Shown here: one piece after another, positions 26,301-49,386 of the stretch
Numbering within the stretch: position 1 is the first letter of the stretch
Layout: every line of letters begins with the position of its first letter
DNA from: Escherichia coli
GTDB lineage: Bacteria > Pseudomonadota > Gammaproteobacteria > Enterobacterales > Enterobacteriaceae
Strand: one strand, 5' to 3'
Length of the DNA: 64,000 nt
NCBI RefSeq assembly: GCF_030013205.1
Contig: NZ_CP122648.1
Notes under the pieces: generated by a model
Database searches by the model: none
Told to the model about the DNA's origin: nothing
The model's input: the letters and a program-made list of their open reading frames with translations, nothing else
Translations under genes and position numbers: made by a program

Positions 26301-27659
<1,359 letters not shown>

Positions 27660-27695
27660 TTAATTAACTGATGATGAGCCTGGATTTCCGCTCTC

Positions 27696-27732
27696 ACTGA
27701 ATTTTTATGCAAAATAAATGAGTTTTCATTTA
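27696..27732. promoter_or_regulatory. Tandem ARG boxes (ArgR operator) upstream of argG
   Basis: CTGAATTTTTATGCA and AATGAGTTTTCATT resemble the ARG-box consensus TGAATwwwwATTCA. Confidence 0.55.
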
Positions 27733-27868
27733 ATCATCTTTTATCGGAGACAGGAAGAGTTTAGTGTGTTTTTTGTAAAATAATGCGCTTAAGGGAGAGC
27801 AGGAGAAGGCAAAAGTATTCAACAAATGAAAGTGAACTGGATATTCATTCACGTGATTAGCAATAAAC

Positions 27869-27899
27869 GTTGACAAAATGTGGCATGGATCACTATAAT
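27869..27899 (+). promoter_or_regulatory. Candidate sigma70 promoter of the metY-rimP-nusA-infB operon
   Basis: TTGACA (27869..27874) and TATAAT (27894..27899) about 95 bp upstream of metY. Confidence 0.55.
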
Positions 27900-27991
27900 G
27901 CCTGCAGATTTTACGTCCCGTCTCGGTACACCAAATCCCAGCAGTATTTGCATTTTTTACCCAAAACGAGTAGAATTTGCCACGTTTCAGG

Positions 27992-28068
<77 letters not shown>

Positions 28069-28182
28069 CTTTAGTCCTTTTTCAAATATACTGTGAAGAC
28101 TTCGGCCTTCGTAGTGGGATTTGAAAAAATCCTTCTGGAAAGTGCTCCAGACCGCAGTTGCGGTTATAGGGTTCAGTTATAT

Positions 28183-28208
28183 AAAGCCCCGATTTATCGG
28201 GGTTTTTT
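28183..28208 (+). terminator. Hairpin terminator/attenuator between metY and rimP
   Basis: AAAGCCCCGATTTATCGGGGTTTTTT. Confidence 0.7.
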
Positions 28209-28267
28209 GTTATCTGACTACAGAATAACTGGGCTTTAGGCCCTTTTTTTATGTCTTGGGGGTGGGC

Positions 28268-48564: not shown

Positions 48565-49314
<750 letters not shown>

Positions 49315-49386
49315 TTATTCCCAAGAATTGATAGTGAGCGTAATATTCACGCGCTCAATTATCATAACTTATTCCTGGGGAATGCT

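Follow-up and report, generated by a model that had tools for sequence, protein, structure and literature searches.

Tandem ARG boxes overlap the argG promoter in the divergent argG–metY control region of Escherichia coli

Positions 27696–27734 of the 64 kb stretch of E. coli DNA analysed here (64,000 nucleotides; hereafter the window) almost certainly constitute a functional ArgR operator of the argG promoter. The element comprises two 18 bp ARG boxes lying 3 bp apart and combines a close match to the ArgR motif, the expected geometry, overlap with the promoter, a statistical excess over chance and a phylogenetic footprint. From published work on strain K-12, in which the sequence of the pair is identical, we infer ArgR binding and arginine repression at argG. 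Repressor bound to the pair would cover the −35 region through box 2 and the −10 and start-site region through box 1, thereby excluding RNA polymerase and shutting off the synthesis of argininosuccinate synthase, while a third, distal box near the metY promoter would probably assist binding and link metY to arginine control. The tandem ARG boxes of argG are already known and are a textbook case of an operator in the arginine regulon of E. coli. Their confirmation is of little biological weight and demonstrates chiefly that ARG boxes can be recognised from raw sequence; the combination of a leave-one-out matrix with a cross-species scan provides a clean positive control for ARG-box calls.

Materials and methods

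A symmetric position weight matrix for ArgR was built from 14 boxes in seven operators of E. coli K-12 MG1655, with argG left out. The training boxes were those of the best pair of 18 bp boxes with a spacer of 3 (or 2) bp located in each of the argA, argECBH, argD, argF, argI, carAB and argR control regions of MG1655. For comparison with other species, a degenerate DNA pattern corresponding to the N-terminus of ArgG was used to collect 120 argG loci, 118 of which had enough upstream sequence to be scored; the score of a locus is that of the best tandem within 350 bp upstream of the start codon under a model with a 2 or 3 bp spacer. The footprint alignment covers nine Enterobacteriaceae genera, with identity measured against E. 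coli.

Results and discussion

The window derives from an E. coli chromosome, and its genes include yhbX, argG, metY, rimP, nusA and infB. Positions 27400–28100 are 100% identical to strain ETEC4079, and 5425 of the 5426 complete E. coli genomes contain this segment. The regulated gene, argG (26301–27644, reverse strand), encodes argininosuccinate synthase (447 amino acids), as assigned from the list of open reading frames and the RefSeq annotation of 100% identical DNA. The initiator tRNA-Met gene metY (27992–28068, forward strand), placed by mapping the RefSeq annotation of identical DNA onto the window and by the K-12 annotation, heads the divergent metY–rimP–nusA–infB unit. The tandem ARG boxes lie in the 347 bp intergenic region between argG and metY, which differs from that of K-12 MG1655 by two bases across the whole alignment, both of them outside the pair. 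Further along, between metY and rimP, there are two terminator-like hairpins with T-runs (28183–28206 and 28231–28243), which would be consistent with the known attenuating terminators of the metY–nusA–infB leader.

Box 1, the promoter-proximal box, occupies 27696–27713 and reads TTTGCATAAAAATTCAGT on the argG (reverse) strand; box 2, the promoter-distal box, occupies 27717–27734 and reads ATTAAATGAAAACTCATT on the same strand. They are separated by the 3 bp spacer 27714–27716 (ATA on the forward strand), so that the region reads AAAAGATG ATTAAATGAAAACTCATT TAT TTTGCATAAAAATTCAGT in the direction of argG transcription. The 18 + 3 + 18 bp arrangement, 39 bp in total, is the canonical architecture of a tandem ARG-box operator. 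A preliminary description of this DNA, made from the letters alone, had reported two AT-rich palindromes 50–90 bp upstream of the argG start codon, and both strings are present, CTGAATTTTTATGCA at 27697–27711 and AATGAGTTTTCATT at 27717–27730. The interval assigned to them, 27696–27732, lies 52–88 bp upstream of the argG ATG, in agreement with the distance given; its start is correct, and its end falls 2 bp short of that of the canonical box 2, at 27734.

Both hexamers of the argG promoter fall within the boxes. The −10 hexamer AAAAAT (27706–27701, reverse strand) lies in box 1, which also spans the predicted start-site region, and the −35 hexamer ATGAAA (27729–27724, reverse strand) lies in box 2, at a distance of 17 bp from the −10 hexamer. 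These hexamers, read from the sequence, match the argG promoter tabulated as ATGAAA-17-AAAAAT (PMC3946193). The start site is predicted near 27694, giving a leader of about 50 nucleotides. Each hexamer agrees with the σ70 consensus at only four of six positions, and a generic promoter scan of the window missed the argG promoter, its hexamers being too weak to be called. Their weakness fits the observation that the argG promoter has the lowest Vmax, and hence the lowest capacity, among the arg promoters measured (PMC3658269). The operator thus coincides with the core promoter of a gene for arginine metabolism and covers both hexamers, as is usual in the arginine regulon and classic for the blocking of RNA polymerase, and bound repressor would for this reason be expected to exclude the polymerase.

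A search of the 64 kb with the IUPAC consensus TNTGAATWWWWATTCANW, allowing at most three mismatches, gave seven matches, compared with 8.1 expected from shuffled sequences. The best match was box 1 (27696–27713), with one mismatch; box 2, a moderate match with four mismatches, was missed. Since such a search cannot separate signal from chance and overlooked one of the two boxes, it was replaced by the matrix and a tandem model. With the matrix from which argG had been left out, box 1 (19.6 bits) and box 2 (13.4 bits) rank first and second among all single sites in the 64 kb, and the pair scores 33.1 bits, whereas the next tandem in the window scores 17.6 bits. The fit to the ArgR consensus proposed in the preliminary description is thus borne out decisively by the position weight matrix scan that it had suggested as a check, the pair supplying the two best single sites as well as the best tandem.

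That the pair is a chance match within AT-rich intergenic DNA might be argued from the single-box consensus search, which stayed at the chance level over 64 kb, and from the approximately two single sites of at least 12.3 bits that are expected per shuffled window. The tandem score refutes this statistically: the highest value was 18.8 bits in 500 shuffles of the window that preserved dinucleotides and 23.6 bits in 5000 shuffles of the intergenic region, which is itself AT-rich, so that 0 of 5500 shuffles attained 33.1 bits. The site moreover falls exactly on the promoter of an arginine-biosynthesis gene, and the pair is conserved across genera while its flanks have diverged. We regard the probability of a coincidence as negligible. 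A single ARG-like palindrome elsewhere in the window, GCTGAATAATTATTCCCA at 49306–49323 (13.2 bits), situated at the 3′ end of yraR before yraQ, has no partner box, is within chance expectation and was rejected as a candidate.

When each of the seven known operators was scored with a matrix from which it had been left out, the scores ranged from 19.9 to 39.0 bits with a median of 32.9 bits, making argG, at 33.1 bits, a typical member of the group. A second rival proposal is that the palindromes are the site of another AT-preferring regulator or nucleoid protein, such as CRP, IHF, Fis, Lrp or H-NS, and not of ArgR. A CRP site has been reported in the metY–argG intergenic region (PMC3105977), and nucleoid proteins are attracted by AT-rich DNA. 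However, the intergenic sequence that comes closest to the CRP core (27879–27894) is about 150 bp away, both the 18 + 3 + 18 bp geometry and the agreement at individual positions are ArgR-specific, and the known arg operators are picked up by the same matrix; further proteins may bind as well but would not replace ArgR. A different regulator as the owner of the site consequently appears extremely improbable to us, and we retain ArgR as its likely ligand.

Of 5423 E. coli genomes, 5189 match a 51 bp query that includes the pair at 99% identity or more. Across the 118 argG upstream regions of other species the tandem scores are sharply bimodal, with 14 regions at 28.8–37.1 bits and the remainder at or below 21.2 bits. 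The high scorers comprise eight Enterobacteriaceae (Kluyvera, Citrobacter, four Enterobacter, Superficieibacter and strain RIT691), two Pectobacteriaceae (Brenneria and Pectobacterium), one Tolumonas and three Pasteurellaceae (two Haemophilus and Rodentibacter). Grouped by taxon, 14 of the 23 regions from Enterobacterales, Aeromonadales and Pasteurellales reach at least 28.8 bits, and none of the 95 others (Acinetobacter, Neisseriales, Burkholderiales, Alphaproteobacteria and others) exceeds 21.2 bits. Under the model with a 2 or 3 bp spacer, no high-scoring pair was found in three of 13 Enterobacterales regions (Yersinia, Rahnella and Acerihabitans) or in six of nine Pasteurellaceae regions. 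The TAT spacer is common to 12 of the 14 related high-scoring operators. The distance from the pair to the ATG is 51 bp in the window and 48–51 bp in seven of the eight Enterobacteriaceae, with 81 bp in Enterobacter sp. Bisph1; it is 146–270 bp in the Pectobacteriaceae and Tolumonas (229 bp in the latter) and 23–24 bp in the Pasteurellaceae. In a pasteurellacean example, AATGACTTTTTATTCAAT taa AATGATTAATTATTCAAT, the motif has been kept and the sequence has diverged.

Two of the low-scoring regions have an arrangement of their own. In Yersinia artesiana and Rahnella inusitata, approximately 88–128 bp upstream of argG, ARG-like boxes are offset by 22 bp, with an apparent 4 bp spacer, and overlap further boxes at offsets of 10–12 bp; the score under the 2 or 3 bp spacer model is low. 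This arrangement may represent a rearranged operator in Yersiniaceae.

The alignment of nine Enterobacteriaceae genera reveals the pair as a sharp island of conservation, a phylogenetic footprint. Mean identity over the operator (27696–27734) is 91%, with 28 of 39 columns invariant (12 of 18 in box 1 and 14 of 18 in box 2), compared with 48% and three of 33 invariant columns in the leader between the operator and the ribosome-binding region (27663–27695), and 57% and four of 48 in the 48 bp upstream of the conserved block (27743–27790).

Promoter function could account for part of this conservation, as the boxes and the hexamers coincide. Carried to its limit, the argument would make the conserved AT-rich block the argG core promoter only (−35, spacer, −10 and a UP-like tract), with an incidental likeness to ARG boxes and no repressor binding. 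Promoters are AT-rich and conserved anyway, the two hexamers fall within the boxes and a conserved A-tract continues upstream of box 2. Yet the hexamers are poor σ70 matches that escaped the generic scan, and the positions that are conserved are those weighted by the ARG matrix. The pairs of the Pasteurellaceae and of Tolumonas, at quite other distances from the ATG and with different sequences, still score 34.8–37.1 bits, whereas approximately 17 Acinetobacter regions with 25–36% G+C all remain at or below 21.2 bits, which argues that AT-richness alone is not the source of the signal. Published reporter work, furthermore, treats the argG promoter as ArgR-repressed (PMC3658269). A promoter without an operator is therefore very unlikely in our judgement, and the block is best read as an ArgR operator superimposed on the promoter.

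The arginine-dependent binding of hexameric ArgR to K-12 DNA was reportedly described by Charlier et al. (1992, J Mol Biol 226:367) and Krin et al. (2003, J Bacteriol 185:3139) in their work on the argG/metY control region, and the argG boxes of K-12 are said to have been mapped by footprinting in both studies, the latter also reporting arginine control of metY via the distal box. A literature search with the ARG-box sequences as the query gave no match. At operators of the arginine regulon a pair of 18 bp boxes with a 3 bp gap is occupied, on a single helical face, by one ArgR hexamer carrying arginine, and steric exclusion keeps ArgR and RNA polymerase from binding together (PMC4381063; PMC6245113). 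At argG, an ArgR dissociation constant has been fitted for a promoter reporter (Kr of 2.85 relative to argA; PMC3658269). Arginine repression of argG, with which the preliminary description had considered the boxes consistent, would accord with this literature as well as with the geometry, the promoter overlap, the identity to K-12 and the footprint.

The full control region contains two further elements that were absent from the preliminary description, namely a distal third box and the divergent metY promoter. The distal single box, CGTGAATGAATATCCAGT on the argG (reverse) strand at 27836–27853, is the fourth-best single site in the window with 12.3 bits; it is located 101 bp past box 2, with 16 bp between it and the −35 hexamer of metY. 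A site approximately 90 bp from the ARG boxes is mentioned, with reference to Krin 2003, in PMC4381063. The outermost base of the distal box is C in the window (CGTGAAT…, 12.3 bits) and T in K-12 (TGTGAAT…, 16.9 bits). The 47 bp around the distal box are identical to the window in 2315 of 5396 E. coli genomes (43%), and conservation of the box does not extend to other Enterobacteriaceae genera (25% identity). Between the pair and the distal box there is a weak ARG-like site, TTTGTAAAATAATGCGCT at 27772–27789 (11.1 bits), which is a candidate only; Kluyvera reaches 16.4 bits at the aligned position, and the site is not generally conserved.

The divergent metY promoter, TTGACA-18-TATAAT at 27870–27899 on the forward strand, matches the σ70 consensus at 12 of 12 positions and is listed for metY in PMC3946193. 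The intergenic region matches the CRP core best within the spacer of this promoter, where TGTGGCATGGATCACT (27879–27894) has two mismatches. With 21 equal or better matches in the 64 kb this site is not significant on its own, and it is not conserved in other genera. Its position in the metY spacer agrees with the published finding that cAMP-CAP inhibits metY; metY is down-regulated both by cAMP-CAP and by ArgR (PMC3017606), and a single CRP site common to the divergent metY–argG pair has been described (PMC3105977). A CRP site within the tandem ARG boxes was also considered and was rejected, given the location of this best match.

Directly upstream of box 2, at 27735–27742 on the reverse strand (about −48 to −41), lies an 8 bp extension, AAAAGATG, which is conserved like the boxes themselves, with seven of eight columns invariant over the nine genera. 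It may act as a UP-like element on which the weak argG promoter depends, or it may represent a hitherto undescribed extension of the ArgR contacts. The polymorphism of the distal box, for its part, could make the reported ArgR/CAP coupling of argG with metY–nusA–infB dependent on the strain. A joint reading, in which the extension serves one of these two roles and the distal-box polymorphism leads to strain-dependent coupling of argG and metY, is speculative, and we would give it only a small chance of being correct.

Comparison with known systems

The closest relative of the operator described here is that of E. coli K-12, which occupies the same locus and shares with it the divergent metY promoter, the argG −35 and −10 hexamers and the presence of a distal third box. 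At the outermost base of that box K-12 has T and the window has C, and the two argG/metY regions also show a T/C difference in the spacer of the metY promoter; neither change touches the tandem pair.

The other tandem operators of E. coli (argF, argI, carAB P2, argECBH, argA, argD and argR) likewise consist of two 18 bp imperfect palindromes 3 bp apart that overlap the core promoter, and in leave-one-out scoring the 33.1 bits of argG are close to the values for carAB (33.5 bits) and argECBH (32.9 bits). Steric exclusion of RNA polymerase is the mechanism common to the operators of the E. coli arginine regulon (PMC4381063; PMC6245113). Unlike the others, argG combines a particularly weak core promoter with an extra distal single box, and its control region is shared with the promoter of a tRNA/nusA–infB operon.

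Beyond E. coli, the argG operators of Enterobacteriaceae, Pectobacteriaceae, Tolumonas and Haemophilus/Rodentibacter likewise contain a canonical pair with a 3 bp spacer, scoring 28.8–37.1 bits. The argG operators of other Gammaproteobacteria differ in their distance to the start codon, which varies, and in their sequences, which diverge outside the consensus positions.
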